Shown: positions 1 through 17,811 of the stretch, piece after piece
Layout of the letters: every line of letters starts with the position of its first letter
Position numbering within the stretch: the first letter of the stretch is position 1
Source of the DNA: SAR116 cluster bacterium AG-447-C21
GTDB lineage: Bacteria; Pseudomonadota; Alphaproteobacteria; Thalassobaculales; Thalassobaculaceae
NCBI GenBank assembly: GCA_003212315.1
Contig: QCQB01000010.1
Location: forward strand, 1,486-65,485
Direction of reading: 5' to 3'
DNA length: 64,000 bases
Notes under the pieces: generated by a model
Told to the model about the DNA's origin: nothing
Seen by the model: the letters and a program-made list of their open reading frames with translations, nothing else
Databases searched by the model: none
Program-made: the position numbers and the translations under genes

Positions 1-1414
1 AAAAAGGCATAGGATAGATTCCCATCAAAAGAATCAAGCCAATTAAAGGTGACAATACCCCTAAATCCCGAAGGGACAAATCTCTCATGTTAATTGTATT
101 GTGGTTCAGAATTTTGCCAAACAAAACACGTTTGTATACGCATAGCAAGCAAGTAAGTAATAGCATAAAAAGCGCAAAAACAGTTATCAAAGTAAGGAAA
201 CTGTGTTCAATCACTCCAAGAATTATTGAAAGGTTTGCGATAAAACTTGCAGTTCCGGGAACCCCTATAACGGCCAATAAAATAAACACATGTATTATCA
301 AAAACGTTGGAATACCATTCATCAAGTGACCGGGCTCCGCCTTGAGGCGATCGCTAAAAATTTTTATACAAATTATTAGACCAGCCCCTATAAAACTATG
401 ACTCAACATCGCAAAAACACCACCCCGTATCCCGTGTTCACTCAAACTAAATACTCCAATCGTTATCAATCCCATTTGAAAAATTAGTATTAACAAGACA
501 AAACTTTTAAAGTTCTTATAAATCATCAAAATAATTACGGCATACACAGCTATCACTATTGCGAAAACTAACATGTAGGGCGCGAAAAGATTGGTCGCAA
601 CTGGAAAAAGGGGAATGGAAAAACGCAAAAAACCATACACGCCTATCTTGGTCGAAATACAGGTGAGCATAATAAGTGTTCCTATTTCACCATCCTCCTG
701 TTGACTCAGAATTCTTTTATGAAAAGGAAACAACGTCATAATAGTCATAAACGGTATAAAAAAAGCGATAAAAAGCCAGATCTGGTTATTCCTCGAAAAA
801 TTGGCATTGTTGAGAATTATTAAATCAGTAGTATTTTTTGATTCGTAAATAAATAGAACTGCCCCCAAGAGTGGAATAAACATGAGAAAAATATTAATAC
901 CAAAATTGAAAAACGCATGATGTCTGCTATTTTTATTCCACATACCAACCATCAGATGCAAAGGTATAGATGCAGCGATCACAAAACAGGCAAAGAGAAA
1001 AACATCTAAAGCACAAAAACTTCCTATTAATGTAGTTTCTAAAACTAGCAATACGATCATATGCTCTCGCACACGGCTTTTTATGCTTTTCCAGGTAGCA
1101 AAAATACAGATTGGCGTTAAGAGTGCTGCGCAAATTATCAAAAACATTGAAATACCATCTATGCCCAATTGATATTTAATACCAATATTCGAAATCCACG
1201 ACGCCTCTTCTAACATTTGAAAACCGCTACGACTGCGATCAAAATTCACCCAAATAAGAAGGGATACGATTAATGTTGGGATAGTGGTCCATAATGCTAG
1301 ATGCCGACAGCTTCTGCCAACAGCTTCATCTTCACCACGGGTCAACATGATGAAGAAGCATCCAGCCAGTGGAAGAAATGTCACTATAGATAATACTGGC
1401 CAATCATTTGTCAT
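1..1414 (-). CDS. NuoM/ND4-like antiporter-type membrane subunit, divergent; C-terminus runs off the left window edge
   Basis: Not in the supplied ORF track because there is no stop inside the window. I hand-translated the minus strand from ATG (1414) down to nt 2 and found 471 codons with no stop. The N-terminus is MTNDWPVLSIVTFLPLAGCFF. Segments ALWTT, GFQMLEEASWI, GIDGISMFLI, VLETTLIGSFCALD, KIGVYGFLRFSIPLFP and MLSHSF resemble alphaproteobacterial NuoM. The gene starts 10 nt after the NuoL-like stop. Confidence 0.8.
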   Translation of the reverse strand, partial: MTNDWPVLSIVTFLPLAGCFFIMLTRGEDEAVGRSCRHLALWTTIPTLIVSLLIWVNFDRSRSGFQMLEEASWISNIGIKYQLGIDGISMFLIICAALLTPICIFATWKSIKSRVREHMIVLLVLETTLIGSFCALDVFLFACFVIAASIPLHLMVGMWNKNSRHHAFFNFGINIFLMFIPLLGAVLFIYESKNTTDLIILNNANFSRNNQIWLFIAFFIPFMTIMTLFPFHKRILSQQEDGEIGTLIMLTCISTKIGVYGFLRFSIPLFPVATNLFAPYMLVFAIVIAVYAVIILMIYKNFKSFVLLILIFQMGLITIGVFSLSEHGIRGGVFAMLSHSFIGAGLIICIKIFSDRLKAEPGHLMNGIPTFLIIHVFILLAVIGVPGTASFIANLSIILGVIEHSFLTLITVFALFMLLLTCLLCVYKRVLFGKILNHNTINMRDLSLRDLGVLSPLIGLILLMGIYPMPF

Positions 1415-1424
1415 AGCGTTAGCC

Positions 1425-3344
1425 CTATAAAGAGTAACAATGATATAAAATGAATACGATACTCCCAAATAGCATCGCGGTACCGTAATAGCTGATAAAC
1501 TGATGTTTAGTGCCAGTAAACAGGATTTTTATTTGTTTGATATTTTTATGCAAACTGCATTGGCACAATAAACCCGATATGACGGAATAAAGTTCATTAT
1601 AAGATCGGAGATGAGTACGAGAGACAGCATATGATATAACCATCTTATAGAGTTTGTCATAAGGGTTTTTAGCACGACTTCTCGCCAATAACGTTTGGCA
1701 ATTGTCAAGTAAACCAATCCGTAACTCCGGTTTTAAAACATATAAAAAATAAGCTATCACTACCCCACAGAAAAAACTGATGACTAGAGGAACATTAAAT
1801 CTTGTTAATTTTTCTATGTTTTTCCAATCTGTCTCTAGTCTCATTGGACTTGGGATAACGTTGCCCCAAAATGTAGAAGAAATATCTCCAAATACAGTAT
1901 TAAACCCTATCATTCCTGCAAATAAAGTAAGAAAGCTTAAGAAGATTAATTTAACTTTAAATACCCAAGAGACTTTATTTATTTTTGTCTTTACCTCCTT
2001 TTTGTTTCCATGTGCCTTGCGCCAAATAATAAATAAAATCTTGAACCCAAGGAAAGCTGTCATAGCAATCACTAGTAAACTGGCGTAAAACACAAAAGTA
2101 CCAATCGAGGTATTTTGGCGCAGCGATGCTTCTAATATTATTATTCCTGAATAATATGCAGATAAAAATGGAAATCCGGTTAAACTCAACACCCCTAGAC
2201 TGGCTGAAATATAGAAAATAGGCGGCCAGTTCTTGTACTCTACCGGTTGTCCTTTAACAATATTGGAAAAAATACACGGGTTTAATGCGCCACTTGAAAC
2301 AAGTAAAAGTGCCACAACAACTATGACGTTTAAGAAATGAAAAACTCCTCCAATGTATGCAGAGGATCCGCAAGCCACAAAAATGTATCCTAATTGGGAA
2401 AAAATTAAACAAAGTATCATGCGTCCCAAGTCATGGCATAATAAAGCCCTAACAAGTAACAGACTAGACACAAGTAGACCAACAATGGAGAGACTGATTA
2501 AAATATTTGGTGTCCGCTCTATCATTGGAGAAAAACGTATCAGAATGAAAACACCCGCCAAGCCCATACTCACCAGATGGATGAAGGTAACTAACGCAGG
2601 ATTGATCAAAGGTTCCTTTATAAACCATCTTTGAAAACTAAGTTGGGCGCATTTTGTAATGGCAGCAAAAATCAACAAAATATTTAAAACAGTTAATGCA
2701 TCTAGACTACTTCCTAAAAGTTCTAATTTAACATTCTGAGTGATAGAGATGACATAAAAGATTTCATCAAATATTATGGTATCATATGATATGTACGCAG
2801 CCACTAAAACAAACAGGAGAGCGAGGTTGCCTACTCGGTCAACAGCAAACATTTTGATTGCCATTGCCCGGGATAAATCCTTCCTTGACGATATTAAGAG
2901 AAGAGAGGAAATGACTCCAATAAGCTCCCATCCCAAATATAATTGCAGGAAATTATTAGCAGATAAAAATAAAAATACTGCGATAGTAAGAACCGGAAAA
3001 TAAAACAGCAAATTTTTGGTATAGCATCCACTAGTTTTTTCCCAAATTAAATGTAGGTGAATAAACATCAATGCTAATGAGAAAATCGATATCATCAACA
3101 GTGTTAAACTATCAAATCTTAATAAATAGTTTGCAACGAAAGAGCCTGTTTTTATCCATGTGATTATCTGGATGCTTTCGAACCCTTGGTTGTAAATCAT
3201 TTCAATCATGCCGCCAAGGCTTAAAGAAAGCATAGCCACCGCGAGTCCACAGCTAACGCCGTGAATGACTCGTCGAGTAAAAAATCGTGACCTCAAGAGA
3301 AAAATCGATGCTAATAATGGAGCAACAAAAATGCATGCATACAT
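1425..3344 (-). CDS. NuoL/ND5-like antiporter-type membrane subunit, divergent
   Basis: 639-aa polytopic ORF. It contains LYLGWELIGVISSLL (cf. GWEGVG), TKCAQLSF, FIHLVSMGLAGVFILIRFSP and FSQLGYIF, plus a C-terminal long helix and final TM (NPYDKLY ... YYGTAMLFGSIVFIL), as in NuoL. Its position in a J-K-L-M gene order supports the call. Confidence 0.8.
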   Translation of the reverse strand: MYACIFVAPLLASIFLLRSRFFTRRVIHGVSCGLAVAMLSLSLGGMIEMIYNQGFESIQIITWIKTGSFVANYLLRFDSLTLLMISIFSLALMFIHLHLIWEKTSGCYTKNLLFYFPVLTIAVFLFLSANNFLQLYLGWELIGVISSLLLISSRKDLSRAMAIKMFAVDRVGNLALLFVLVAAYISYDTIIFDEIFYVISITQNVKLELLGSSLDALTVLNILLIFAAITKCAQLSFQRWFIKEPLINPALVTFIHLVSMGLAGVFILIRFSPMIERTPNILISLSIVGLLVSSLLLVRALLCHDLGRMILCLIFSQLGYIFVACGSSAYIGGVFHFLNVIVVVALLLVSSGALNPCIFSNIVKGQPVEYKNWPPIFYISASLGVLSLTGFPFLSAYYSGIIILEASLRQNTSIGTFVFYASLLVIAMTAFLGFKILFIIWRKAHGNKKEVKTKINKVSWVFKVKLIFLSFLTLFAGMIGFNTVFGDISSTFWGNVIPSPMRLETDWKNIEKLTRFNVPLVISFFCGVVIAYFLYVLKPELRIGLLDNCQTLLARSRAKNPYDKLYKMVISYAVSRTHLRSYNELYSVISGLLCQCSLHKNIKQIKILFTGTKHQFISYYGTAMLFGSIVFILYHCYSL

Positions 3345-3352
3345 CGGTTAAA

Positions 3353-3670
3353 TCAGTCGTTAATTAAGTTTTGGTCTTCAAAAATTCGAAGACCTTTTTT
3401 TCGAAACGCTGCTATCACCAGAGCCAAACCAATAACGGCGCTGACAGCCGTAATTATTAAGATATAAAAAGTAAATGCTTGTCCATCTAAACTTTTATTG
3501 AAAAAGGAAAACGCAATGAAAGTTATGCATATCGCCACTATCATCAACTGAACCGAAATAAAGATATTAGGTACACTTTTCGGTTTAAATATAAGACCGA
3601 GAGCCCCTAATATGAAGATCCCAGATGCTAACGACAAGTAATGTAATAAGGATATTTCGAACATCATCAA
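3353..3670 (-). CDS. NuoK/ND4L-like small membrane subunit, divergent (both conserved Glu replaced)
   Basis: 105 aa with three predicted TM segments. LLHYLSLASGIFILGALGL and AVIGLALVIAAFRK match the NuoK pattern. It overlaps the upstream J-like gene by 4 nt and lies 8 nt upstream of the L-like gene. Confidence 0.75.
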   Translation of the reverse strand: MMMFEISLLHYLSLASGIFILGALGLIFKPKSVPNIFISVQLMIVAICITFIAFSFFNKSLDGQAFTFYILIITAVSAVIGLALVIAAFRKKGLRIFEDQNLIND

Positions 3671-4293
3671 CTACTATCGGTGTTACTATGATTCTGCTCT
3701 AAGCTTAGGATATTTTTATCTCTTCGCAGAGTTTCGCGTTTCTTTATCGTCAACACCACAAAGCCAATAACAGTAACTAACAGGATCAACATAGTCCCTT
3801 GTGAAATATAAAAATAATCCACGTATAATTTCTCTGCCAATGTATGTAATGATGAAAAAGAGAAAGCGTTAGCACTCAATAGTGCTGAATCTATTGACGA
3901 TAATCGAGAAAATAAATAGGCAACAAACCAAACAGATAATTCTATAAGTAATATTAAAGTAACACTTGCGCTAAGTTTTGAATATTGCGCTACAACTTTG
4001 CGCATTTGATATAAATTCAAATCGAAAATTAATATGCCACAAAAAAATAAGCCAGTTGATATCGTCAAATACAGTATTAGTAACGTCACCGAAATCAGTA
4101 TTGCATCAAGCAAAACAAAAAGCGCCGCCACATTAAACATAATCGCGAATAAGAATATAACAGAACGAATGGGGTCACGTGCCGTTATTGAAAGAACCGA
4201 AAATGCCACAATAATAGAAGCTAAAAGAAAGAAAGTGAGTGCATTGGTCATTGTACATAGCCCTGAACCAGGAATAACAAACTTAAGACTCAC
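3667..4293 (-). CDS. NuoJ/ND6-like membrane subunit, divergent
   Basis: 208 aa. LTFFLLASIIVAFSVLSITARDPIRSVIFLFAIMFNVAALFVLL resembles the NuoJ N-terminus (..V..RNPVHS.L.L....). The real start may be the internal Met at 4251 (MTNALTFF). Its position before the K-L-M-like genes supports the call. Confidence 0.7.
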   Translation of the reverse strand: MSLKFVIPGSGLCTMTNALTFFLLASIIVAFSVLSITARDPIRSVIFLFAIMFNVAALFVLLDAILISVTLLILYLTISTGLFFCGILIFDLNLYQMRKVVAQYSKLSASVTLILLIELSVWFVAYLFSRLSSIDSALLSANAFSFSSLHTLAEKLYVDYFYISQGTMLILLVTVIGFVVLTIKKRETLRRDKNILSLEQNHSNTDSS

Positions 4294-4379
4294 TAATTAC
4301 GAAGTTAAGTCTTCCAATTATAGGCAACTAACTTTCGCTACTAAATCTCTTTTTATGAGACATTCTGACTTGTTTTATA

Positions 4380-4417
4380 CAAGATCATCTCTTGTTCGTC
4401 AAAAAGAGATGATCTTG
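4380..4417 (-). promoter_or_regulatory. Perfect 14-bp stem hairpin in the nqrF to nuoJ-like spacer (possible attenuator, processing site or weak terminator)
   Basis: caagatcatctctt (4380-4393) pairs perfectly with aagagatgatcttg (4404-4417) across a 10-nt loop. The stem is AT-rich. On the transcribed (minus) strand there is no clear U-tract after it. Confidence 0.4.
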
Positions 4418-4495: not shown

Positions 4496-5716
4496 CTATC
4501 CACCAAAGTCATCTAACATAATGTCTTCACCATCAACTCCAAGATCTAATAACATGTTGATACACGACTGATTCATCATCGGTGGACCACACATATAAAA
4601 CTCACAGTCCTCAGGAGCTGGATGATCTTTTAAATACTCGTCAAACAGAACATTATGGATAAATCCTGTATGTCCGGTCCATTTATCCTCTTCCACCGCA
4701 TCCGATAACGCTACGTGCCAGGTAAAGTTCTTATTTTCTGCTTGTAATCTGTCAAAATCATCAACATAAAACATTTCGCGCTTTGAGCGGGCTCCATACC
4801 AAAAAGTGATTTTTCTATCAGTTTTGATCCGGTCTAGCTGATCAAGAAGATGACTACGCATGGGTGCCATCCCTGCCCCACCGCCAATAAAAACCATTTC
4901 TTTCTTAGTTTCTCGGGCAAAAAACTCGCCGAACGGTCCCGAAATAGTAACTTCATCACCGGGCTTCAGATTAAAAATGTAGGATGACATCTGCCCAGAG
5001 GGAATACCAGTTGATCCTGGCGGCGGTGAAGCTATGCGAACATTTAACATGATGATGCCCTTTTCTTCAGGGTAGTTGGCCATCGAATAAGCTCTTTCTA
5101 CTGGTTCTGTTACCTCTGAATTAAAGTCCCAAATTTTAAACCGGTCCCAATCCTCATGATATTCTTCGGCTACATCAAAATCTCTGTAAGAAAGTGAATA
5201 TGCTGGTGCTTCTATTTGAATATACCCGCCTGCCCTGAAATCAACATCCTCTCCCTCAGGGAGTTCTAGAACAAGTTCCTTTATAAAAGTGGCGACATTC
5301 TCGTTACTACGAACCCTGCAAACCCACTTCTTTACCCCAAAAACTTCCTCAGGAACCTCAATCTCCATATCCTGTTTAACTGCAACCTGACACGATAGGC
5401 GATCACCGCATGCTGCATCCCTTTTTGTGATATGTCCCTCCTCAGTAGGCAGAATGGAACCGCCACCAGAATGTATTTTTACTCTACACTGGGCACATGT
5501 TCCCCCGCCACCGCAAGCAGACGGAACAAACAGTTTCTCTGTAGCTAAAGTTTGGAGCAACTTGCCACCAGCTGGAACACTAACAGTTTTTTCTCCATTA
5601 ATGGTAATATTTACGTCGCCGGTAGAAACTAGTTTATTCTTAGCGAACATTATAACGGTCACCAGGGTGATTACTATCATCGTAAAAAAAACGATACCTA
5701 GTGTAAAAGTTTCCAT
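4496..5716 (-). CDS. nqrF: Na+-translocating NADH:quinone oxidoreductase subunit F
   Basis: 406 aa with an N-terminal TM. It has the 2Fe-2S ferredoxin motif [14 protein letters not shown], an FAD/NAD-binding C-terminal region ([17 protein letters not shown]) and ends in DDFGG. Confidence 0.95.
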
Positions 5717-5729
5717 ATCTTACTTTCTC

Positions 5730-6338
5730 CTATAATTTCACACCGGAAAAACACATAAACCCCATAGCCATAAGGCCAGCTGTGATGAAAGTTATACCGA
5801 GCCCTTGCAGGCCATCTGGTATATCACTGTATTTCAATTTCTCCCTAACTCCTGCCATTGTTGCAATTGCTAAGGCCCAACCAAAGCCGGATGCCAACCC
5901 ATACGTTGTGGACTCGGCAAAGTTATAATCCCGCTCAACCATAAATAACGAACCACCAAGGATCGCACAATTAACTGTGATAAGTGGTAGAAATATACCC
6001 AAAGCGTTATACAGTGGGGGGAAATATTTATCCAAAGTCATCTCAACAATTTGGACCATAGCAGCTATAACCCCTATATACGAAATGAGCCCAAGAAAAG
6101 TTAGATCAACATCCGGAAAGCCTGCCCAAGATAAAGCCCCTGGCTTCAGAAGATAAGTCAAAATTAAATTGTTTGCCGGCACTGTAATAACTTGCACTAC
6201 CATAACCGACAATCCCAAACCGATAGCCGTCTCTATCTTCTTTGAAACAGCTATGAACGTGCACATACCCAGAAAAAAGGATAGGGCTAGATTTTCAACA
6301 AAGATCGCTTTAACGGCCAGAGAAACAAGATCGCCCAT
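5730..6338 (-). CDS. nqrE: Na+-NQR subunit E
   Basis: 202-aa polytopic protein in the RnfA/NqrE family pattern ([16 protein letters not shown] ... [10 protein letters not shown]). It sits at the expected position in the nqr operon. Confidence 0.9.
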
Positions 6339-6991
6339 TAATGCTCCTCCACCACCTGGATCTTAAACTCTCTTTCCTCAACCTGGGCCGGTTTCCATGT
6401 TCGCGCCGCCCAGATTAGCAATCCAATGATGAAAAACGCTGATGGGGGGAGTAAAAGCAACCCGTTTGGCACATACCAGCCGCCATTATTTACCGACTCC
6501 AAAATTGTTATCCCGAACAGCGAGCCTGATCCAAAAAGTTCGCGCACAACTCCAACCAGCATCAACAACAAGCCATAACCCAACCCATTGCCTATACCAT
6601 CTAAAAAAGAAGCTAGTGGAGGGTTTTTCATCGCAAATGCTTCCGCCCTGCCCATTACAATACAATTAGTAATAATTAATCCTACGAATACTGATAAGGT
6701 TTTTGAAATCTCAAAAGCAAAAGCTTTAAGTATCTGGTCAACAAGTATTACAAGCGAGGCAATTATGACCATTTGCACAATGATACGAATGGAACTAGGG
6801 ATGTAATTTCGAAGAAATGATATAGACATTGACGAAAAACCACATACCGCAATCACCGCTATTGACATCACTAATGCAACCTGAAGAGAAGACGTCACAG
6901 CCAAGGCTGAGCAAATCCCTAAAACTTGTAAGGTTATTGGATTATTATCAACTAGTGGATCTACCAATAGTTCTTTTTTTGTTTGTGCCAT
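6338..6991 (-). CDS. nqrD: Na+-NQR subunit D
   Basis: 217 aa in the NqrD/RnfE pattern ([18 protein letters not shown] ... [13 protein letters not shown]). Its ends share 1 nt with the neighbouring genes. Confidence 0.9.
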
Positions 6992-7797
6992 CAGGCTGCT
7001 CCTGCCTTTAAATTAGATATGAAAGCCGCGAAACCAGATTTACCCATCCAAAATTTTACTAAATTATCGACCCCATCTGAAGTCAATGTAGCACCAGCAA
7101 GTGCGTCTATGTGATGTTCTTTTACCTTTGCCACCTTTGCAACCTGTATCATTAGGTTACCCGCCTCGTCTCGCAGTTTTTTCCCTTGCCATTGGGCTTT
7201 CCATCTAGGATTGTCGACTTCGGCACCCAACCCGGGTGTCTCGGCATGATCATAAAATTGGAGGCCAAATATATCATTTCCATTTTCCTCTAACGCTATG
7301 AATCCATAAAGCGTAGACCAAAGTCCATATCCGTAAATCGGCAATATTATTTTATCCAAAGATCCGTCTTTATTTTTGAGGAGATAAACAGTGGTGAAGT
7401 TTGGTTTACGACCTATTGATGCAGGGTCTTCTTGTAATTCCGAACTCATGCTTGGGTCTTTTGCTGCGGCACGCTCATCAAAACTTGCAATATCTATAGC
7501 GTCGGTGAACTTGCCCGTTCTCATGTCAACTATACGAGGCTCAAATGAAGAAAAAACCGCCCCCACATCAACGCCCTCTTTGTAAAGGCCCGCTACTTGC
7601 AGGATATTAACTTTTTTATCTAGAGCTTTATTATATACCTGAATAGGACGCAGGTTCACCGCCGCGAAAGCAACTATCATGGAACAAAAAAGGCAGAGTG
7701 TAACAGCTACGAATATTGTTTTAGGAGTACTGTCAACAGGCAAAGCAATTAATTTACCCCACAAAGTACTGGGTTCTCTATCAGGCATTTCGCGCAA
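6991..7797 (-). CDS. nqrC: Na+-NQR subunit C (FMN-binding)
   Basis: 268 aa with a single N-terminal TM. The covalent-FMN attachment motif is present as [12 protein letters not shown]. Confidence 0.9.
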
Positions 7798-8989
7798 TCC
7801 TCCGTTTAATATTGGCTTGAACCACGAAATAATCGATTAATGGCGCGAACATATTTGCGAATAGGATAGCTAACATCATTCCCTCAGGGAAAGCCGGATT
7901 TAGCACTCTTATCATGACAACCATAAAACCAATCAACGCGCCATAGAAGTAACGTCCGACATTAGTATGACTAGCAGATACAGGCTCGGTCACCATAAAA
8001 CAAAGTCCAAATGCATAGCTACCTAAAACTAAATGCCAGTACCAAGGCATAGCAAACATAGGGTTAGTGTCAGACCCTATCCAATTAAGCAATAAAGAGA
8101 ACCCAATCATTCCACCTAGGCAACCAACTACCATCCGATAATTAGCTATTTTTGTAACCAACAGGAATGCTAAACCAACAAAACAAGCTAATGTAGATGT
8201 TTCACCAAGCGAACCTTGGATTGTTCCATAGAAAGCATCCCACCACGTTATGCCTTCTATCGCGAGGCTTTCAATCCCTCTGGCAGCTGACAAACCCAAA
8301 GCTGTAGCCCCAGAGAACCCATCCACCGGCGTCCATATCGCATCTCCCGACATATTTGCAGGATACGCAAAGTATAGGAAAGCCCTGCCTGTAAGAGCGG
8401 GGTTTAGGAAGTTTTTCCCTGTTCCTCCGAAAACTTCCTTTCCGATAACTACACCAAACGCTATTCCTAATGCCACCTGCCATAGTGGCGCTGAAGCCGG
8501 CATCGTAAGAGCAAAGAGCATAGAGCTAACCAAAAACCCTTCGTTAACTTCATGACCACGTACTGTGGCAAAAACTACTTCGCAAATTCCTCCTGCCACC
8601 AGCGTTACTATATATATTGGCATGAAATAAAGCATTCCATGTAACATATTACCCAGTATGCTATCCGGATTAAGGCTGACCCCTAACATCTTTATTACAA
8701 AGATTCTCCAGCCAACGTGGCTGGTATCACCTAGTTCCGCTAATCCAATATTTGTTTGCAAACCAGTATTATAAAAGGCCCACAATATGCACGGGATCGT
8801 TGATATCACGACATAAGTCATGATGCGCTTCATATCTACAAAACTTCTGGCATGGGGCGCTGCTTTGGTTACAGATTTACCGGTATATAAAATAGTCTCT
8901 ATCATTTCATAGATTGGATAGTACTTCTCGTATCTTCCGCCCTTTTCAAAATTCGGTTCAATGTTATCGAAGAAACTACGTAATCCCAC
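7781..8989 (-). CDS. nqrB: Na+-NQR subunit B
   Basis: 402 aa. The N-terminus MGLRSFFDNIEPNFEKGGRYEKYYPIYE is typical of NqrB. It has the FMN-attachment region DGFSGATALG and is polytopic. Confidence 0.9.
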   Translation of the reverse strand: MGLRSFFDNIEPNFEKGGRYEKYYPIYEMIETILYTGKSVTKAAPHARSFVDMKRIMTYVVISTIPCILWAFYNTGLQTNIGLAELGDTSHVGWRIFVIKMLGVSLNPDSILGNMLHGMLYFMPIYIVTLVAGGICEVVFATVRGHEVNEGFLVSSMLFALTMPASAPLWQVALGIAFGVVIGKEVFGGTGKNFLNPALTGRAFLYFAYPANMSGDAIWTPVDGFSGATALGLSAARGIESLAIEGITWWDAFYGTIQGSLGETSTLACFVGLAFLLVTKIANYRMVVGCLGGMIGFSLLLNWIGSDTNPMFAMPWYWHLVLGSYAFGLCFMVTEPVSASHTNVGRYFYGALIGFMVVMIRVLNPAFPEGMMLAILFANMFAPLIDYFVVQANIKRRIARNA

Positions 8990-8992
8990 TTC

Positions 8993-10354
8993 TTAACCCT
9001 CCTTTTCAATCTTTAGAAGGCTATCACGCAAAGCCTGACCATATTCATACTTCGCCGGACACGAAAATGTGCAAAGAGCAAGATCTTCTTCATCTAGCTC
9101 AAGTGCTCCCAGGGATTGAGCAGCGTCGGTGTCCATAACCAATAACGATCTCAGTAGCTGAGTTGGAAGGAAGTCTTGGGGCATTAAGGTTTCAAAAACA
9201 CCCGTTGGGACCATTGCTCGCCTTCCACCATTTAGATTTGAAGTAAAATTAAATAGTTTTGAACGCCGGAAAGCTGACGCCAAAACTGGCATCGCGGCGA
9301 ATTTATTAGGTTGCGGTCTAATCCATCCAAAAGGAATCTGTTCGGTATCTTCTTTTATTAGGGTGACTTGTCTAGAAAATCTACCCAAATATGCCAGAGC
9401 CCCTTCCGCCACACGCCCACTCAGGATAGAGCCCGAAATTATCCGACAAGGAGCTTGTGGATCGAATTCATTTTCGACTAAATCGTCTAAAGAGGCTCCC
9501 GAGATAGTTTTCAATAACCTAGGGTTGAGAGCTAATGGACCTGCCAAAGAAATTACACGTATAGGATTGATGTATCCTGAACGCATCAAATGGCCAATTG
9601 CTATGACATCCTGATATCCAATCGACCAAACCACATTATTAACAGATGGTGGGTTAAGAAAATGCATATGCGTTCCAGCCAATCCTGAAGGGTGCGGCCC
9701 GTCAAATTTATGACTTTCTGCATTTGCAACCCCGGTTACATCACCAATAGTCCCATTCGAAGCCTTACAAATATAGACTTTGCCATCCGTCAACGTTGCA
9801 ATCGAACTTACGCCAAGATTAAACGCCTCCTGTTCTTGACTTACGACAACAGATGCGTCAGGAGCAAGAGGTTCAGTCTCCATCGCAGTGACAAAGATAG
9901 CAGACGGCACATCCTCTTCTAAGGGCATCTTGGAATAAGGTCTGGTTAGAAACGAAGTCCAGAGCCCTGAATCAAATAGGATTTTTTTTACTTTATCCCT
10001 CTGAAACCCGTCTGAACCGATGGCGCCAAAATTCACTCCCTTATCGTCAATATCATCAACGTCTATAATGACACTTTGCAAAACTCGTCGTGCCCCACGC
10101 ATGACCCCTCGAACTCTTCCTTTGCAAGGAGAAACAAACATTATGTTCGGTGCTTCTTTATGAGAAAAAAGAGGCGTTCCTCTGACGACTTCATCGCCCT
10201 CTGCAACTAGCATTCTTGGTTTCAGGCCATTATAGTCACTTCCTACGACGGCAACGCTCTTGGGAGTGGCGCTTTCGTGAATCGTTTGTTGCGGTATTCC
10301 GTTTATTGGAAGATCCAGCCCTATTTTAAGCCGAAATTCTGACATTAGTAACAA
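8993..10354 (-). CDS. nqrA: Na+-NQR subunit A
   Basis: 453-aa soluble-type protein. The N-terminus ..KIGLDLPINGIP is typical of NqrA, and it is the first gene of the nqrABCDEF order. The true start may be the Met at residue 4. Confidence 0.9.
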   Translation of the reverse strand: MLLMSEFRLKIGLDLPINGIPQQTIHESATPKSVAVVGSDYNGLKPRMLVAEGDEVVRGTPLFSHKEAPNIMFVSPCKGRVRGVMRGARRVLQSVIIDVDDIDDKGVNFGAIGSDGFQRDKVKKILFDSGLWTSFLTRPYSKMPLEEDVPSAIFVTAMETEPLAPDASVVVSQEQEAFNLGVSSIATLTDGKVYICKASNGTIGDVTGVANAESHKFDGPHPSGLAGTHMHFLNPPSVNNVVWSIGYQDVIAIGHLMRSGYINPIRVISLAGPLALNPRLLKTISGASLDDLVENEFDPQAPCRIISGSILSGRVAEGALAYLGRFSRQVTLIKEDTEQIPFGWIRPQPNKFAAMPVLASAFRRSKLFNFTSNLNGGRRAMVPTGVFETLMPQDFLPTQLLRSLLVMDTDAAQSLGALELDEEDLALCTFSCPAKYEYGQALRDSLLKIEKEG

Positions 10355-10637: not shown

Positions 10638-11675
10638 ATGGTTATCAATTTTAAATCCACATTGAGTATTTTGATGTTGTTTATTCTAATCGGATGCTTT
10701 GGAGACCAGAAAGAACCATCGCCTGTTTCTATAAGTGGCCAAACCATGGGCACTACATACAATGTAACCGTGGTTGATAATCCATTAAGCTTATCTAAAG
10801 AAGATCTGAAAAAACGAATAGAAGAAACACTCAATGACGTAAACGAAAAGATGTCCAACTGGTACGAACAATCTGAAATAAGTACAATCAACAATGATAA
10901 GAGAGGGAAACCTATTGATTTATCCCAAGAACTTTTCGACGTGATCAATATATCAACAGACATACATAACAGAAGTAACGGAGCTTTTGACATAACGGCG
11001 GCACCGCTCATAAACCTTTGGGGGTTCGGGCCAAATAATTCTGAGAGGGAAATACCATCCGTGTTAGAGGTAAAAGCTGCTCTAGAACTGGTAGGACAAA
11101 CCAAGCTGTTGAAATTGATACCAGGCTTAAACCAATTAAAAAAACGAAATCCAGAAGTTTTGATAAATTTGTCAGCAATAGCTAAAGGGTATGGTATTGA
11201 TAGGGTTGCCAGCACTCTGAAAGAACAAAAAATACAAAATTTTCTGGTGGAGATCGGCGGTGACCTAATAACGTCAGGCACCAACAAAAATGGAAAGTCA
11301 TGGTCGATTGGTATAGAAGCACCCAAGATAGAAAGTCAGATTGTTCAGTCTGTAATAAAAATTAAAGATCAAGCCATGGCCACTTCGGGAGATTACAAAA
11401 ATTTCTTTGAGAAAAATGGAATTCGATACTCTCATATAATCGATCCTAAAACCGGTTATCCTATTCGACACAAAACATTGTCTGTAACCGTTTTGGCTGA
11501 GAGCGCTGCACTTGCTGACGGCTGGGCAACCGCTATGTTGGTATTAGGAAACAACGATGGGATGATTGTAGCGAACAAACTTAACATACCCGTTTTTTTT
11601 ATTTCAAGTCATGAAGAAACGTTTATAACTTCAGGTAGCGACGAGTTTAAAAAAATTGTTGCAGGGAAACATTAA
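10638..11675 (+). CDS. apbE: FAD:protein FMN transferase (flavin transferase ApbE), lipoprotein
   Basis: 345 aa with a signal peptide and lipobox LILIGC. It shows the ApbE family pattern (GAFDITAAPLINLWGFG, AIAKGYGID, ATSGDYKNFF, YSHIIDPKTG). It is divergent from nqrA. Confidence 0.9.
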   Translation: MVINFKSTLSILMLFILIGCFGDQKEPSPVSISGQTMGTTYNVTVVDNPLSLSKEDLKKRIEETLNDVNEKMSNWYEQSEISTINNDKRGKPIDLSQELFDVINISTDIHNRSNGAFDITAAPLINLWGFGPNNSEREIPSVLEVKAALELVGQTKLLKLIPGLNQLKKRNPEVLINLSAIAKGYGIDRVASTLKEQKIQNFLVEIGGDLITSGTNKNGKSWSIGIEAPKIESQIVQSVIKIKDQAMATSGDYKNFFEKNGIRYSHIIDPKTGYPIRHKTLSVTVLAESAALADGWATAMLVLGNNDGMIVANKLNIPVFFISSHEETFITSGSDEFKKIVAGKH

Positions 11676-11709
11676 AGATCATAACTACAAAAAGATCGGA
11701 AATATCTAA

Positions 11710-11934
11710 TTGGAAACTTTCGTTTTTACTTTCTTTATCCTTCTAATATTGATGCTCATTATGTCATTAGGTGTGTTATTAATGGGGAAGAATATAAAAG
11801 GAAGCTGTGGGGGATTAAACGCGATAACTGGAGCAGACAAATGTGTGGTTTGCAAAAAAGATATAGATCCTAATAGCCCTCTTAATGAAAAATTGAGATG
11901 TCACCGGGCCCAGCAAATAGTTCGCGAATTTTAA
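11710..11934 (+). CDS. nqrM: (Na+)-NQR maturation protein NqrM-like (DUF539)
   Basis: 74 aa with one N-terminal TM followed by a Cys-rich tail (GSCGG ... KCVVCK ... RCH). It lies directly after apbE. The start is TTG in the ORF track. Confidence 0.7.
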   Translation: METFVFTFFILLILMLIMSLGVLLMGKNIKGSCGGLNAITGADKCVVCKKDIDPNSPLNEKLRCHRAQQIVREF

Positions 11935-12014
11935 TACTCAATTCCTTCATTATGTGTATACGTTTTATAGAACCGTAAATTACCGAAGGATTGACTTGAA
12001 ACGTAAATAGGTTG

Positions 12015-12194
12015 TTAACTGGGCATATCTAAAGGGACAAATGCGACTACAACAAAGGACAAAAACGCCAGAGAACCATACACCCAAGCTCTTTTAACCC
12101 AGCCAGCTTCCTGACTCACCCAGTTTTGACGAAAGACCTTTCCACAATAAATCATGGCAACCAATAAAACCGCCGCCAGCAAAGGATCCAGCAA
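12015..12194 (-). CDS. Possible small two-TM membrane protein (hypothetical; start uncertain, TTG 12194 or ATG 12155)
   Basis: Hand-translated frame, bounded by an in-frame TGA upstream and TAA at 12015-12017: (M)LDPLLAAVLLVAMIYCGKVFRQNWVSQEAGWVKRAWVYGSLAFLSFVVVAFVPLDMPS. It is below the ORF-track length cutoff. I recognise no family. Confidence 0.25.
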   Translation of the reverse strand: MLDPLLAAVLLVAMIYCGKVFRQNWVSQEAGWVKRAWVYGSLAFLSFVVVAFVPLDMPS

Positions 12195-12357: not shown

Positions 12358-12434
<77 letters not shown>

Positions 12435-12533
12435 TGATCTTGGGGCACATTATATTATTTACCGTCCCTAATTAGTCCCTTAGCAATACACACGCAATAA
12501 AAAACCACCTGTTCTGGTAAAAATATACTTCTG

Positions 12534-12609
12534 TGGTGGGCGCTGACGGGTTCGAACCGCCGACCCTCTCGGTGTAAACGAGATGCTCTCCCAACTGAGC
12601 TAAGCGCCC
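12534..12609 (-). tRNA. tRNA-Val (anticodon UAC)
   Basis: The reverse complement reads GGGCGCTTAGCTCAGTTGGGAGAGCATCTCGTTTACACCGAGAGGGTCGGCGGTTCGAACCCGTCAGCGCCCACCA. The anticodon loop is TTTACAC and CCA is encoded. Confidence 0.95.
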
Positions 12610-12627
12610 TTTATGAAATACTCTACT

Positions 12628-12665
12628 CAAATCAAAAGCACCGAACCTTAAACTGATTCGGCACT
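12628..12665 (-). terminator. Probable rho-independent terminator of hupB
   Basis: The minus-strand RNA reads AGUGCCGAA-(11-nt loop)-UUCGGUGCU followed by UUUGAUUU. The 9-bp stem includes two G-U pairs that form only in the minus-strand orientation. Confidence 0.5.
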
Positions 12666-12682
12666 CTTAATATTTAAGTCTT

Positions 12683-12955
12683 TTAATTCAATGAGTCTTT
12701 CAAGCCTTTACCTGCCTTAAACTTCGGCTGCTTTGAGGCTGGAATATTAATTTTTTCGCCTGTTCTGGGGTTACGGCCTTCGCTTGCCGCCCGGTCAGAT
12801 ACACTAAACGTACCAAATCCGACTAACCGCACATCATCGCCTGCCTTTAGAGCGCCAACTATTGATTCTATAACTGAATCGACGGCACTTCCCGCATCAG
12901 TTTTGGAGAGCCCCGAACTATCGGCGACTTTTGTAATTAGTTCGTTTTTATTCAC
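12683..12955 (-). CDS. hupB: DNA-binding protein HU
   Basis: The sequence (M)NKNELITKVADSSGLSKTDAGSAVDSV ... GFGTFSVSDRAASEGRNPRTGEKINIPASKQPKFKAGKGLKD is canonical HU. I prefer the GTG start at 12955 (90 aa) over the track start at 12994. Confidence 0.9.
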   Translation of the reverse strand: MNKNELITKVADSSGLSKTDAGSAVDSVIESIVGALKAGDDVRLVGFGTFSVSDRAASEGRNPRTGEKINIPASKQPKFKAGKGLKDSLN

Positions 12956-13162
12956 GCTATGCCCCTTCCAGTATCCTAAAGTAATTGAGCCCACTAAAAC
13001 AATTTTCAGCTGGCTAACTACGTCAGTCTAAATCGGTGGGTAGCCTTGCGTCAATGTAAGTATAGAAGAATTTCTAATTTTTTTGTCCTTCTCTGTGTAA
13101 AAACAATGCGTCTTTAAAAATAGATAGGCTTTAGTGCCCAATCTTTAGCCCTAAAACTGATT

Positions 13163-15562
13163 TTAATGTTTGACGACCTCCTCCTGCACGATATCTTCAG
13201 GCTTATTAATAGGAGCACTAGGATCACCTTCTCCCAGGCTAACTGGGACTGGCTCAGCGGCCAAAGCGTGCGATATAACCTCATCAGCAACAGTAACAGG
13301 AATTATCGTCAAGCCCTTCTTGACGTTATCCGGAATATCCGCGAGATCCTTCTCGTTATCCTTTGGGATAAGAACTGTTTTTAGCCCTCCCCTCAGCGCA
13401 GCTAATAGTTTTTCCTTTAGCCCCCCAATTGGCAACACCCTACCTCTAAGAGTTATCTCACCGGTCATAGCAACGTCGCGTCTCACGGGTATTTCTGTAA
13501 GAACTGAGACAATCGACGTAACCATGGCAACTCCCGCAGATGGACCATCTTTAGGTGTTGCTCCTTCCGGTACGTGCACGTGAATATCCTTATCCTCTAG
13601 GATTTTTGGGCTTATGCCGAATGAGGCAGCGCGCGATTTAACAAAACTCTCCGCCGCTTGCACAGACTCTTTCATTACATCGCCAAGCTTCCCTGTTGAT
13701 GTTACTTTTCCCTTGCCCGGGACTGTAACTGACTCTATTGACAGGAGTTCACCGCCCACCTCTGTCCAAGCTAGGCCAGTAGTGACTCCAACCAAATCAC
13801 TGTCTTCTGTTTCGCCAAATCTAAACTTTTTCACTCCCGAGAATTTCTCTAAATTTTTCTTGGTAATTTTTAATTGCTTAACTTCCGTCATCAGTATTTC
13901 TTTTACTGACTTCCTTGCTAGATTAGCAATTTCCCGCTCTAAATTGCGGACTCCGGCCTCTCGAGTATAATAGCGAATTAAGTCTCTTAAGGCATCATCC
14001 GATATACTCCATTCGGTATCTAGCAACCCGTGCTGATGCCTTTGTTTCCCTATCAGATGTTTTTTCGCAATCTCAACTTTCTCATCTTCGGTATAACCAG
14101 ATAGCCGAATTATCTCCATACGGTCCAGTAATGGCTGCGCCATCCGCAATGTATTGGCTGTTGTTACGAACATAACATCCGAGAGATCGTAGTCCACTTC
14201 AAGATAGTGATCCTGAAAACTACTATTCTGCTCTGGGTCAAGAACTTCTAAAAGCGCCGAGGACGGATCGCCCCGGTAATCATTTCCTAACTTGTCTATC
14301 TCATCTAATAAAAATAACGGATTCGATGTTTTAGCCTTTTTCATCCCTTGAATGACTTTTCCGGGAAGCGAACCAATGTAAGTTCGTCTATGCCCTCGGA
14401 CTTCAGCCTCATCTCGAACGCCGCCCAATGACATTCTAACAAAGCTACGCCCTGTTGATTCTGCAATAGATTTTCCAAGTGAAGTTTTACCAACACCTGG
14501 GGGACCAACCAAGCACAGTATTGGGCCTTTAACCTTACCTGTTCTAAGCTGGACCGCAAGATATTCTAATATACGCTCTTTCACTTTTTCGAGACCATGA
14601 TGATCACGATCTAGAATATTCTGAGCAACCGTAAGATCTTTTTTCACCCTCGACCGTTTTTTCCAAGGGATACTGAGCATCCAATCGAGATAATTACGGA
14701 CGACCGTCGCCTCTGCTGACATTTGGCTCATATTCCTAAGTTTCTTCAACTCAGCCATAGCCTTTTCTCGAGCTTCTTTAGAGAATTTTGTTTTTGCGAT
14801 TTTCTCTGATAGTTCCGCTAATTCATCCCCACCATCTTCATTATCACCCAATTCTTTCTGTATCGCTTTCATTTGCTCATTGAGATAGTATTCCCTTTGA
14901 GTTTTCTCCATTTGTCTCTTGACGCGGTTTCGAATTCGCTTCTCAACCTGCAAAACGCCAATCTCACCTTCCATGTGACTGAAAATTTTCTCTAATCGAG
15001 CTGACACTGAGCTCAATTCGAGAAGTTCCTGTTTCTCCTGAATCTTCACTGCAATATGAGAAGCTATGGTATCCGCCAATTTACTAACATCATCGATCTG
15101 GTTAACTGATACTAATACCTCTGGAGGGATTTTCTTATTCAACTTTATATATTGCTCAAATTGTGTCACAACCGCTCGTGATAAAGCCTTTTGTTCCTGA
15201 CTATCGTCATGGCTTTCCTCGACTTTTTCCGCTTCAGCCTCGAAAAATTTGTCGTTATCTAGATATTTTTTGATCTTTGCTCGATGCGTACCCTCCACCA
15301 AGACTTTGACTGTACCATCCGGTAACTTTAGCAATTGAAGTATAGTTCCGATTGTTCCTATCTGGAACACATCGTCAAAATTAGGATCGTCAACGCCAGC
15401 ATTTTTTTGGGTGGCCAAAAATACCTGCTTGTCCTCTTGCATCACGTCTTCCAGCGCATTTATTGACTTCTCTCGGCCAACAAATAAAGGAACTATCATG
15501 TGCGGGAATACTACGATATCGCGTAAAGGTAAAACGGGATAAGTCGAGATTTCTTCAGTCAT
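13163..15562 (-). CDS. lon: ATP-dependent Lon protease
   Basis: 799 aa with the N-terminus [27 protein letters not shown]. It has Walker [10 protein letters not shown] and the protease Ser motif PKDGPSAGV. Confidence 0.97.
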
Positions 15563-15695
15563 AGGATCAACGGCCCTTTTTCTAGCTTCTAATAGGTGAT
15601 TTCAAGTTTCGCAACCTGATCACACTAGATATTTGGCCTCGTCTTGGCAAAAAATCAAGATCTAGAAAAACTTTCTGTAAAAAAATATTTAGCGC

Positions 15696-16976
15696 CTATG
15701 CACTTGTCTCAATTTCTTCGCGGCGTTCCGAGTGAACAGAGATTGGTTTTGAACCATGTTCAACTACGTCAGAGTTAATAATAATCTCTTCAACATCACT
15801 CTTTTCGGGCAATTCAAACATAGAATCGAGAAGTATAGCCTCTAAGATAGACCGCAGGCCGCGTGCTCCAGTTTTTCGTTCAATAGCTTTAACCGCTATG
15901 CTACGCAACGCATCATCTCTAAACTCTAATTTCACCTCTTCCATCTCAAACAAACGTTGATATTGCTTTATCAAGGCATTTTTTGGTTTGCTCAATATAT
16001 CGACCAGAGCATCTTCATCTAAATCTTCCAAGGTTGCCAAAACTGGCAGCCTTCCGACGAACTCTGGTATCAAACCAAATTTTAAAAGATCCTCTGGTTC
16101 CACATCCTGTAAAATTTCGCCTGTTTTTCTATCATCTGGTGAACTTACATCTGCATTAAACCCTATTGACGAACCTTGCCCACGATCGGCGATAATCTTA
16201 TCCAGACCAGCAAACGCACCGCCACATATGAATAGAATGTTAGTTGTATCAACCTGCAAGAACTCTTGCTGAGGATGCTTGCGTCCACCTTGGGGTGGCA
16301 CACTAGCGATTGTTCCCTCCATTATTTTCAGTAATGCTTGCTGGACGCCCTCCCCCGAAACATCTCTTGTAATCGATGGGTTATCTGACTTACGACTTAT
16401 TTTATCAACCTCATCAATATACACAATGCCTCTCTGCGCCCTTTCCACATTATAATCTGCCGCCTGAAGAAGCTTAAGAATTATATTTTCAACATCCTCA
16501 CCTACATACCCGGCTTCTGTGAGAGTTGTTGCATCAGCCATAGTAAAAGGAACATCTATTATTCTTGCTAAAGTCTGTGCCAGAAGGGTTTTTCCACAGC
16601 CTGTCGGCCCAACTAAAAGTATATTAGACTTCGCCAATTCCACATCGCCAGCTTTTTGATCATGGGCCAATCTTTTATAGTGATTGTGAACTGCTACCGA
16701 TAAAATACGTTTCGCAAAGGGTTGTCCTATAACATAATCATTCAGGACATCGCATATAATTTGCGGAGCAGGTACCCCATCCTGTTCTCTCACCAATGTC
16801 GACTTATTTTCTTCGCGGATTATGTCCATGCATAATTCAACACATTCATCGCAGATAAAGACCGTTGGTCCAGCAATTAACTTTCGAACCTCATGCTGAC
16901 TTTTTCCACAAAACGAGCAATACAGTGTATTTTTTGAGTCCCCACCGTTATTGCTAGTAGTATTCGACTTATCCAT
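15696..16976 (-). CDS. clpX: ATP-dependent Clp protease ATP-binding subunit ClpX
   Basis: It has the zinc-binding N-terminus [11 protein letters not shown]...CDEC, Walker A GPTGCGKT and IGF-loop-type regions. The start is chosen at the Met of MDKSNTT (426 aa); the track ORF begins 18 nt upstream. Confidence 0.95.
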
Positions 16977-17120
16977 TTTCCAGATCCGCAACAATTCCTT
17001 TATCAGTCAATTATCAACTGATAATTAATTTTAAACAAGGCCTTTAATTTGATTAGCCAATAATCGGCTATTTCTCAATTAGAAATAATTCAAGGTGCGC
17101 ATTTAATAGATCACTAAAAT

Positions 17121-17762
17121 TTACTCCCCCGTTTCGACTGGTCGTTTTTCAACGACCTCGTCAATCAATCCAAATGATTGCGCCTCTTTTGGAGTTAGAA
17201 AATTATCGCGTTCCATCGCACTTTCAATTTTACTAATTTTTTGACCGGTATGCTTGACGTAAATCTCGTTAAGCCGGGCACGCGTTGAGAGTATTTCTTT
17301 AGCGTGTATTTCAATATCTGTGGCTTGACCTTGGAAACCACCTGATGGTTGGTGGATCATAACCTTTGAATTAGGGAGAGAATATCTCTTCCCTTTAGCG
17401 CCTGCTGTCAACAGTAGCGAACCCATTGATGCCGCTTGTCCGATACATACTGTCGATATGTCTGGCCGAATATACTCCATAGTGTCATACATGGCTAATC
17501 CCGAGGTTACGATACCGCCTGGGGAATTTATATACATAGAAATATCTTTTGTAGGGTTATCTGCCTCCAAAAAGAGTAATTGGGCACAAACTACGCTGGA
17601 TACAGAATCGTCAATTGGACCAATCACAAAGATGATTCTCTCCTTTAATAGGCGCGAGTATATATCAAATGCACGCTCTCCGCGATTGGTTTGTTCAACA
17701 ACCATAGGGATCAAACTACTCATCTGTAACTCCTGGGAATTGGACATTCTAACGAATCTCAT
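17121..17762 (-). CDS. clpP: ATP-dependent Clp protease proteolytic subunit
   Basis: [37 protein letters not shown] (catalytic Ser) and MIHQPSGG are all present. The true start is probably an internal Met (17747 or 17723). Confidence 0.95.
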
Positions 17763-17811
17763 TCATCAATTAACCGGTTCATGTTCTTCTCGGTTGAGAG
17801 AAAATCAATGA

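Follow-up and report, generated by a model that had tools for sequence, protein, structure and literature searches.

Orphan parts of the complex I (nuo) operon have been described in two groups of bacteria, both related to the case analysed here. In Gilliamella and other Orbaceae the 14 nuo genes are reduced to exactly nuoJKLMN, nuoA-I being absent, in 95 of 95 genomes, and according to the authors the five are probably left over from genome reduction (PMC11325843); truncated nuo operons other than that of Gilliamella were not found in the literature. In the low-GC SAR116 genera LGC2-C/D the genes of the Na+-translocating NADH:quinone oxidoreductase (Na+-NQR; nqr) take the place of nuo, and nuoL is mentioned beside nqr (Roda-Garcia et al. 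2021, PMC8547437). Moreover, subunits of complex I have counterparts in the Mrp antiporters, i.e. NuoL corresponds to MrpA-N, NuoM/N to MrpD, NuoK to MrpC and NuoJ to MrpA-C, NuoH being without an Mrp counterpart (PMC7419157; Steiner and Sazanov 2020). Here we describe nuoJ-, nuoK-, nuoL- and nuoM-like genes at positions 1-4293 of a stretch of 64,000 nucleotides (64 kb; contig QCQB01000010.1, positions 1,486 to 65,485), to which we refer as the window, together with their orthologues in other contigs. An initial annotation had noted that these genes are full length but have lost most canonical ion-channel charges, and had argued for continued selection on proteins that no longer translocate ions by the canonical mechanism. 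The observation is confirmed and its interpretation partly supported; what had been missed is that nqr replaced nuo genes in place and that selection is relaxed 3-7 fold as compared with canonical nuoJ-N.

Region 1-4293 contains four intact open reading frames (ORFs) on the minus strand, tightly packed with gaps of 2-10 nucleotides (nt): a nuoJ-like gene (3667-4251; 194 amino acids (aa), or 208 aa from an alternative GTG start at 4293), a nuoK-like gene (3353-3664; 103 aa, or 105 aa from an alternative TTG start at 3670), a nuoL-like gene (1425-3344; 639 aa) and a nuoM-like gene (1-1414), of which 471 of about 492 codons lie within the window (orthologues have 492-493 aa). The 3' end of the latter and the fifth gene of the set, which is nuoN-like and codes for 482 aa in orthologous contigs, lie past the left edge of the window. 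The four window proteins exceed the gathering scores of PF00499, PF00420 and PF00361, they are named NuoJ, NuoK, NuoL and NuoM by Pfam and NCBIfam, and their best matches in the PDB are complex I chains J, K, L and M (E-values 1e-14 to 3e-83). Most of their scores are far below the equivalog cut-offs: the J-like protein reaches 100.4 (cut-off 154), the L-like protein 244.9 and 230.8 (407.5 and 556) and the M-like protein 375 for NF004499 (585), the latter passing at the level of the subfamily (TIGR01972, 319 bits, cut-off 263.8). One K equivalog, NF004320, is passed by the K-like protein (66.6, cut-off 57), and the N-like protein passes the subfamily TIGR01770 (352, cut-off 332.6). Orthologues of the L-like protein are 68-96% identical, the next matches being canonical NuoL proteins with at most 34%, and in the following the loci of these orthologues are, together with the window, called the clade.

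The genomic context reveals where these genes come from. The J-like gene is directly preceded by nqrF, from which it is separated by a spacer of 245 nt, and nqrA-F occupy 4496-10345 on the minus strand (Pfam NQRA, NQR2_RnfD_RnfE, FMN_bind, Rnf-Nqr twice, Fer2/FAD/NAD). All orthologous contigs have the order nqrA-F, J, K, L, M, the 482-aa NuoN-like gene and then birA-coaX-rnj-mce-DUF1467, and canonical marine alphaproteobacterial operons read nuoA...N-birA-coaX-rnj-DUF1467 (locus L013; SAR11 loci L023/L024). On the other side, genes for tRNA-Asp and tRNA-Val, hupB, lon, clpX, clpP and tig (12358-19242, minus strand) represent native synteny on the upstream side of the former nuoA and have the same order in locus L025. 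Canonical NuoA-I gave only noise (E-values of at least 0.09) in a tblastn search against all 64 kb, and the spacers contain no relics either. Thus, with nqr at the site of nuoA-I, native flanks on both sides and no match to NuoA-I in 64 kb, region 1-4293 is what remains, at the 3' end, of a native alphaproteobacterial operon for complex I, in which nuoA-I was replaced in place by a Na+-NQR cassette. In genome annotation such genes can mimic a 'partial complex I', although the NADH dehydrogenase of the genome is Na+-NQR; NCBI labels their relatives 'hypothetical protein' or 'proton-conducting transporter membrane subunit'.

Relay residues, erosion and selection

Residues were assigned by aligning the proteins with phmmer to chains of solved complex I structures (Paracoccus 8qby, plant mitochondria), with high posterior probability, and, as second method, by an independent MAFFT alignment including the orthologues. 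Both reproduce all substitutions in NuoK, NuoL and NuoM that had initially been read by eye, numbering included, i.e. the register was right and the Glu and Lys residues listed there as replaced are truly lost. In the K-like protein Gln41 and Ser77 (105-aa numbering) stand for both membrane glutamates (E. coli E36 and E72), which have been described as essential for complex I (PMC7419157); Gln and Ser are invariant in six orthologues, leaving a NuoK-like protein without any membrane carboxylate. In the M-like protein the Glu of transmembrane helix (TM) 5 is replaced by Ile146, the Lys of TM7 by Ile225 and the Glu of TM12 by Asn, the WLPDAH motif is absent, and the TM8 Lys and the TM11 His are retained. 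Across the clade the positions of NuoM E144, K234, K265 and E407 are Ile/Thr, Ile/Met, Lys and Asn, respectively, so that one of four charges is kept, and the K and M substitutions are fixed or almost fixed throughout. The L-like protein retains E140 (the TM5 Glu of the GWE motif), K231 (the TM7 Lys of TKCAQ), H256 (the TM8 His) and H336 (E. coli H334), as had been recognized for the first two, and has lost the equivalents of E. coli D178, H338, K342, K399 and D400. K342 is replaced by Val/Leu and D400 by Ile/Leu; the position of K399 varies within the clade (G/E/L/V) and is thus unconstrained. The NuoN-like protein keeps all four channel charges (E133, K217, K247 and K395; five orthologous loci), and in the J-like protein the TM3 Tyr, equivalent to Nqo10 Y59, is present in all five sequences, the Glu of the conserved GAEF motif being Ile/Val. 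The central charge relay is thus interrupted at NuoK, where both Glu are gone, at the two ends of NuoM and in the distal part of NuoL. In TM6 of the L-like protein (residues 169-173, window ~2826-2840, minus strand) the canonical VNRVGD reads VDRVGN across the clade, i.e. the Asp equivalent to D178 is gone and a new invariant Asp is found four residues, or one helical turn, before it, which may be a compensating shift for the loss of D178.

The changes extend well beyond the relay. Of the positions that are canonical-identical, i.e. the same in Paracoccus or plant mitochondria, L013 and SAR11, 33% are retained in J (22 of 66), 45% in K, 39% in L, 45% in M and 64% in N, the NuoN-like protein being the least changed of the five; for L this corresponds to 75 of 191 canonical-invariant columns. 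Losses occur in similar proportion among hydrophobic, Gly/Pro, polar and charged residues, and the retained positions are more often clade-invariant. The clade proteins are 30-41% identical to canonical ones, canonical pairs 52-83%; e.g. the K-like protein shares 37-38% with canonical NuoK, whereas two canonical alphaproteobacterial NuoK share 83%. The initial statement that most canonical charged residues are lost applies to K, M and distal L; the NuoN-like protein, encoded outside the window, has its four charges, and the erosion is general rather than aimed at channel charges. The overall fold has probably outlasted these changes. An AlphaFold2 model of the L-like protein (predicted local distance difference test score 71, predicted template modelling score 0.75) gives Foldseek TM-scores of 0.75-0.78 to ND5/NuoL over the full length, which supports the view that the NuoL fold is kept, as had been stated for the NuoL architecture as a whole; for residues 553-639, comprising the lateral helix and the last TM, the model is of low confidence.

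All genes of the set are intact throughout the clade. In 14 other contigs, some of which were recovered via birA, i.e. by a search independent of the presence of nuo, every copy of J-N is one uninterrupted match without frameshift or stop. The length of each protein is constant, with 103 aa for K, 482 aa for N, 492-493 aa for M and 637-641 aa for L, and in-frame indels in K, N and M are nearly absent across a synonymous divergence (dS) of ~0.8. Random sequence with the base composition of these genes should contain 7-42 stops per gene, the probability of finding none ranges from 7e-4 (K) to 2e-19 (L), and the longest open run in shuffled L-like sequence is 162 codons, as opposed to 639 observed. 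The open state of the four ORFs had been noted before, with 639 aa for the L-like protein and 471 codons up to the window edge for the M-like gene, and so had the expectation of chance stops, which likewise holds, only that the GC content of 30-35% given there is slightly too low for genes with 34-37%. NuoL-like proteins of 604 aa were considered as N-terminal truncations and rejected, as codons 1-35 are intact and were left out by a later start in gene calling. In L010 (~2998-3025) the last 11 residues of the L-like protein are unlike all others, pointing to a frameshift near the stop codon. No gene of the set is broken except nqrF of one metagenome contig (L012, 2167-3386), where a frameshift, probably an assembly error, splits the gene and thereby indicates the scale of such errors.

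The ratio of nonsynonymous to synonymous substitution rates (dN/dS) was determined by NG86 with bootstrap, using a SAR11 pair with the canonical operon in the same synteny as control. Within the clade it amounts to 0.16-0.33 for J (control 0.046), 0.07-0.35 for K (0.031), 0.22-0.42 for L (0.096), 0.17-0.28 for M (0.031) and 0.13-0.19 for N (0.056), with bootstrap upper bounds of at most 0.55 and the lowest dN/dS among the five for the NuoN-like gene. Among the neighbours the values are 0.004-0.07 for nqrA-F (genes not present in the control), 0.03-0.11 for coaX (0.037) and 0.11-0.19 for birA (0.17). As dN/dS of J-N is well below 1 but 3-7 times that of canonical nuoJ-N in the control, birA and coaX being as in the control, J-N are under purifying selection that is relaxed 3-7 fold. 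J-N are thus not pseudogenes: they are open, of constant length and under purifying, albeit relaxed, selection. The marks of decaying pseudogenes, i.e. dN/dS near 1 and frameshifts, had been named initially as what would speak against continued selection, and neither was seen. Within the L-like gene dN/dS rises from 0.16 in TM4-8 to 0.42 in the lateral helix and TM16. An early burst of change followed by stabilisation need not be assumed, since, by a rough estimate, the L-like gene would reach its distance to canonical NuoL by changing at its present rate for about four crown ages. Between the near-identical strains of L009 and L014 the L-like gene (2049-3974 and 5065-6990, respectively) shows 37 nt differences (21 aa), which are partly clustered, and the remaining 5.5 kb from J to coaX just 19; this could result from local recombination, from a mixed-strain assembly or from very weak constraint on L.

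An exhaustive HMMER search revealed a second clade of full-length NuoL-like proteins (638-640 aa), found in 'Rhodospirillaceae' and 'Kordiimonadaceae' metagenome-assembled genomes (MAGs) and labelled hypothetical by NCBI (P0361 cluster; MBT5911673.1, MBT7731799.1, MBT5383942.1 and others). Its members are 33% identical to the L-like protein of the window and 25-28% to canonical NuoL. They have lost 123 of the 191 canonical-conserved columns, 97 of which are lost in the window clade, too, and both clades have derived states in common, namely a one-residue deletion and the exchanges R to N, W to S, G to T and P to L. It seems from this that both clades descend from an old, already degenerate ancestor and that full-length ORFs have persisted for long. 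The second clade lacks the TM7 Lys and the TM8 His, and K399/D400 are conservatively Arg/Glu, so that the TM5 Glu and H334 are the only key residues that both degenerate clades keep. A 214-aa fragment, P0362, was noted along with the P0361 cluster (58% identity).

Explanations for the retention of nuoJ-N

Taken together, the best explanation, to which we assign a probability of roughly 60%, is that nuoJ-N are an in-place complex I remnant kept as orphan 'antiporter module', which has lost redox-driven pumping and provides a redox-independent benefit. The Na+-NQR cassette, i.e. the small ORF described below, nqrM, apbE and nqrA-F, displaced nuoA-I and left nuoJKLMN behind, and about half of the once-invariant positions drifted under a constraint several-fold weaker than in a working complex I; according to this scheme the J-N subcomplex would have been retained for a modest, redox-independent and non-essential benefit. 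As NuoA-I, NuoH included, are missing from the 64 kb, there would be no quinone chemistry that could act as drive, and thus the J-N proteins should not be a redox-driven proton pump. Canonical ion translocation had been excluded from the start; this agrees with the missing relay residues and, more decisively, with the absence of nuoA-I, including the gene for NuoH, from the operon and the 64 kb. We infer that the five proteins still fold and assemble as a membrane-arm-like subcomplex. The constraint looks mainly structural, being strongest on the NuoN-like protein and on TM4-8 of the NuoL-like protein and weakest on the lateral helix, and if ions are still conducted at all, the NuoN-like protein would be the most plausible path. 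The more specific roles suggested initially, a scaffold, an assembly factor or a repurposed membrane module, are speculation.

Several observations weigh against this explanation. In a SAR116-type locus (L026/L027, 30.5% GC), which has the same layout of small ORF, nqrM, apbE and nqrA-F at the birA-coaX-rnj locus as the clade, nqrF is followed after 64 nt (15837-15902) by birA-coaX-rnj-DUF1467 without any nuo remnant, and no PF00361 gene is found within 10 kb. This shows that the module is dispensable in that lineage, that its deletion is viable and that loss is an accessible end state. Further, the differing key residues of the two NuoL clades argue against a conserved transport path in NuoL. 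Finally, the AT-rich spacer of 52 nt between the nuoN-like gene and birA contains no terminator, birA appears to be co-transcribed with the nuoN-like gene, and part of the pressure against stops could therefore be indirect.

The main rival extends this last point, i.e. J-N may be functionless leftovers kept open by indirect selection, which is possible, if on the doubtful side. In this view J-N are situated between a promoter and the essential genes birA-coaX-rnj, stops would cause Rho-dependent polarity on the latter, the missense constraint would reflect the misfolding cost of polytopic membrane proteins, and deletion as in SAR116-LGC would be the expected end. The short spacer without terminator and the small gaps within the operon are in line with such a mechanism, as are the 3-7 fold relaxation of selection, the evenness of the erosion over residue classes, the different key residues kept by the two NuoL clades and the direct junction of nqrF to birA in the SAR116-type locus; moreover, the authors of the Gilliamella study favour remnants as well (PMC11325843). 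Polarity, however, accounts for missing stops but not for dN/dS values of 0.1-0.3, and neither the near absence of in-frame indels (K 103, N 482, M 492-493 aa) nor the survival of ~5.2 kb through the divergence of the two clades to 33% identity is readily explained. A clean deletion is viable elsewhere, yet none of the 14 other clade contigs shows one. In addition, nuoN is the last gene in gammaproteobacterial operons, so that polarity fails for Gilliamella.

Reversion or recruitment of the remnant to an autonomous secondary cation/proton exchanger, centred on the NuoN-like protein and the proximal part of the NuoL-like protein, is very unlikely, although several features would suit it. Together with Na+-NQR such an exchanger might convert a Na+ gradient to a proton gradient, its genes are located immediately downstream of nqr, and the retained set is the Mrp-homologous module (PMC7419157). 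The NuoN-like protein combines E133, K217, K247 and K395 with the lowest dN/dS of the five, and in the NuoL-like protein the TM5 Glu, the TM7 Lys and the TM8 His are still present, TM4-8 being its most constrained part. According to work of Steuber and Hagerhall, single antiporter-like Nuo subunits reportedly carry cations or complement mrp mutants. On the other hand, the locus genes are J, K, L, M and the N-like gene only, flanked by nqrF and birA, with no homologue of MrpB, E, F or G among them, the Mrp-specific carboxylates and histidines are absent and the NuoK-like protein has no membrane carboxylate. Further, the TM7 Lys and the TM8 His are gone from the second NuoL clade, and SAR116-LGC has the same nqr cassette without J-N. 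A partner such as DabA (DUF2309) or CupA, typical of other PF00361-based modules (DabAB / NDH-1 CO2-uptake type), where it is encoded beside the antiporter-like gene, was found neither in the window flanks nor in any orthologous locus. A split operon, in which J-N would serve a functional complex I whose nuoA-I genes lie at another site of the genome, is hardly credible, since both NuoK Glu and NuoM E144, K234 and E407 are gone, the scores are far below the equivalog cut-offs, 36-67% of the conserved positions are eroded, and nqr sits exactly at the nuoA-I position with no nuoA-I-like sequence in 64 kb.

If the retained orphan module of our preferred explanation had an activity of its own, this would amount to a reversal of the evolutionary fusion of an Mrp-like antiporter with a redox module. 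In its most general form the idea is that an Mrp-derived module can outlive the redox module over long evolutionary times, as a membrane complex that is autonomous and has taken on a new task independent of redox chemistry, e.g. NuoN-centred cation/proton exchange with Na+-NQR or a structural role, and that nuoJKLMN were kept independently in Thalassobaculaceae-like marine bacteria and in bee-gut Orbaceae by function and not by accident. We hold this generalization to be unlikely. In any case, the clade represents a natural experiment on complex I, in which the energy-input half disappeared and the output half evolved on its own: the fold, the subunit lengths, the NuoN charge set, the NuoL TM5 Glu and the NuoJ tyrosine were kept, and the NuoK glutamates, Glu/Lys/Glu of NuoM and the distal Lys/Lys/Asp of NuoL were freed.

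The nqr cassette, its spacers and the lineage

The accessory part of the nqr cassette spans 10638-12194 and consists of apbE (10638-11675, plus strand), nqrM (11710-11934, plus strand) and a conserved ORF of 59 aa with two TMs (12015-12194, minus strand), which flank nqrA in identical arrangement in the SAR116-type locus L026. The small ORF codes for 59-66 aa (L001 1149-1328, L025 13314-13493, L026 8240-8440), is 95% identical within the clade and 37% to the SAR116-type locus, is always located beside nqrM/apbE and has no match in Pfam or NCBIfam; it may represent an accessory gene of the cassette that has not been described before. Owing to its location at the position of nuoA it was considered as a NuoA relic, which was rejected as it has no similarity to NuoA and belongs to the cassette. 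Between the SAR116-type locus and the clade, housekeeping proteins are 31-51% identical and Nqr proteins 64-91%, a comparison which shows that a related nqr cassette entered the nuo locus in two distant lineages. Within the operon, nqrC and nqrD (window 6338-7797 versus L001) have dS values of 1.45 and 0.98, i.e. two to three times higher than nqrA, B, E, F and the nuo-like genes (0.3-0.5), which hints at a recombined segment.

The nqrF-nuoJ spacer contains a hairpin (4374-4417, minus strand) with stems 4404-4417 and 4380-4393, an energy of -22.1 kcal/mol and a z-score of -6.2. It occurs at orthologous positions in L001, L006, L007 and L009, the loop UUUGACGAA is invariant across loci and the stem is preserved via compensatory changes, e.g. 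GAUC/GAUC versus GACC/GGUC. The loop overlaps a promoter-like TTGACG-17 nt-TATAAA (4374-4402), and loop and 3' arm together read TTGACG-17 nt-TATAAn. A scan for consensus promoters and terminators gave no more sites than in shuffled sequence, and the promoter resemblance may be coincidental, as it lies within a conserved hairpin loop. The hairpin could be a terminator or attenuator, an RNA stabiliser, a protein-binding site or a promoter.

As to the host, the best named relatives of Lon are from a 'Thalassobaculaceae bacterium' MAG (93% identity), the contig of which has the same synteny, and from Nisaea (81%), so that the lineage is Thalassobaculaceae-like by protein similarity; GTDB contains the L-like protein in only two species. 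The window was not equated with SAR116 LGC2-C/D (PMC8547437), as the GC content is 30.55% there and ~40% (40.3%) in the clade loci, and both the relatives of Lon and the housekeeping identities given above speak against it. No paper on nqr in Thalassobaculales or OM75 was found.

Comparison with known systems

Like SAR116 LGC2-C/D (PMC8547437), the clade consists of marine alphaproteobacteria with nqr in the place of nuo; intactness, selection and residues are not analysed in that paper. The arrangement in the SAR116-type locus L026/L027 differs from the published remark on nuoL beside nqr. With Gilliamella the clade shares the same five orphan genes, nuoJKLMN. The Gilliamella set, however, is gammaproteobacterial, an adjacent nqr replacement is not described, and residue state and selection are not reported there.

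With the Mrp antiporter (MrpA-G) the clade has in common that the module occurs without a redox module, and the subunits kept are exactly the Mrp-homologous ones. In contrast to Mrp, the locus lacks MrpB, E, F and G and codes for three antiporter-like subunits, as complex I does. The carboxylates of MrpA-C (E706 at the position of NuoJ Y59) are replaced by Tyr in the J-like protein, the two His of MrpC are absent, and in the K-like protein Gln and Ser occupy the Glu positions of complex I. Moreover, synteny and best matches clearly identify a complex I operon as origin of the module.

From the membrane arm of complex I the clade differs in that its locus has no genes for NuoA-I, NuoH included, within 64 kb and in that relay residues are lost in K, M and L. 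The relationship is nevertheless evident from clear homology, from the order J-K-L-M-N and the tight operon spacing, and from the NuoL-like fold, the best solved matches being Paracoccus denitrificans (8qby) and plant mitochondrial ND6/4L/5/4/2. It extends to individual residues, as the NuoJ Tyr, the TM5 Glu, TM7 Lys and TM8 His of NuoL, the TM8 Lys of NuoM and the four NuoN charges are those of the canonical membrane arm.

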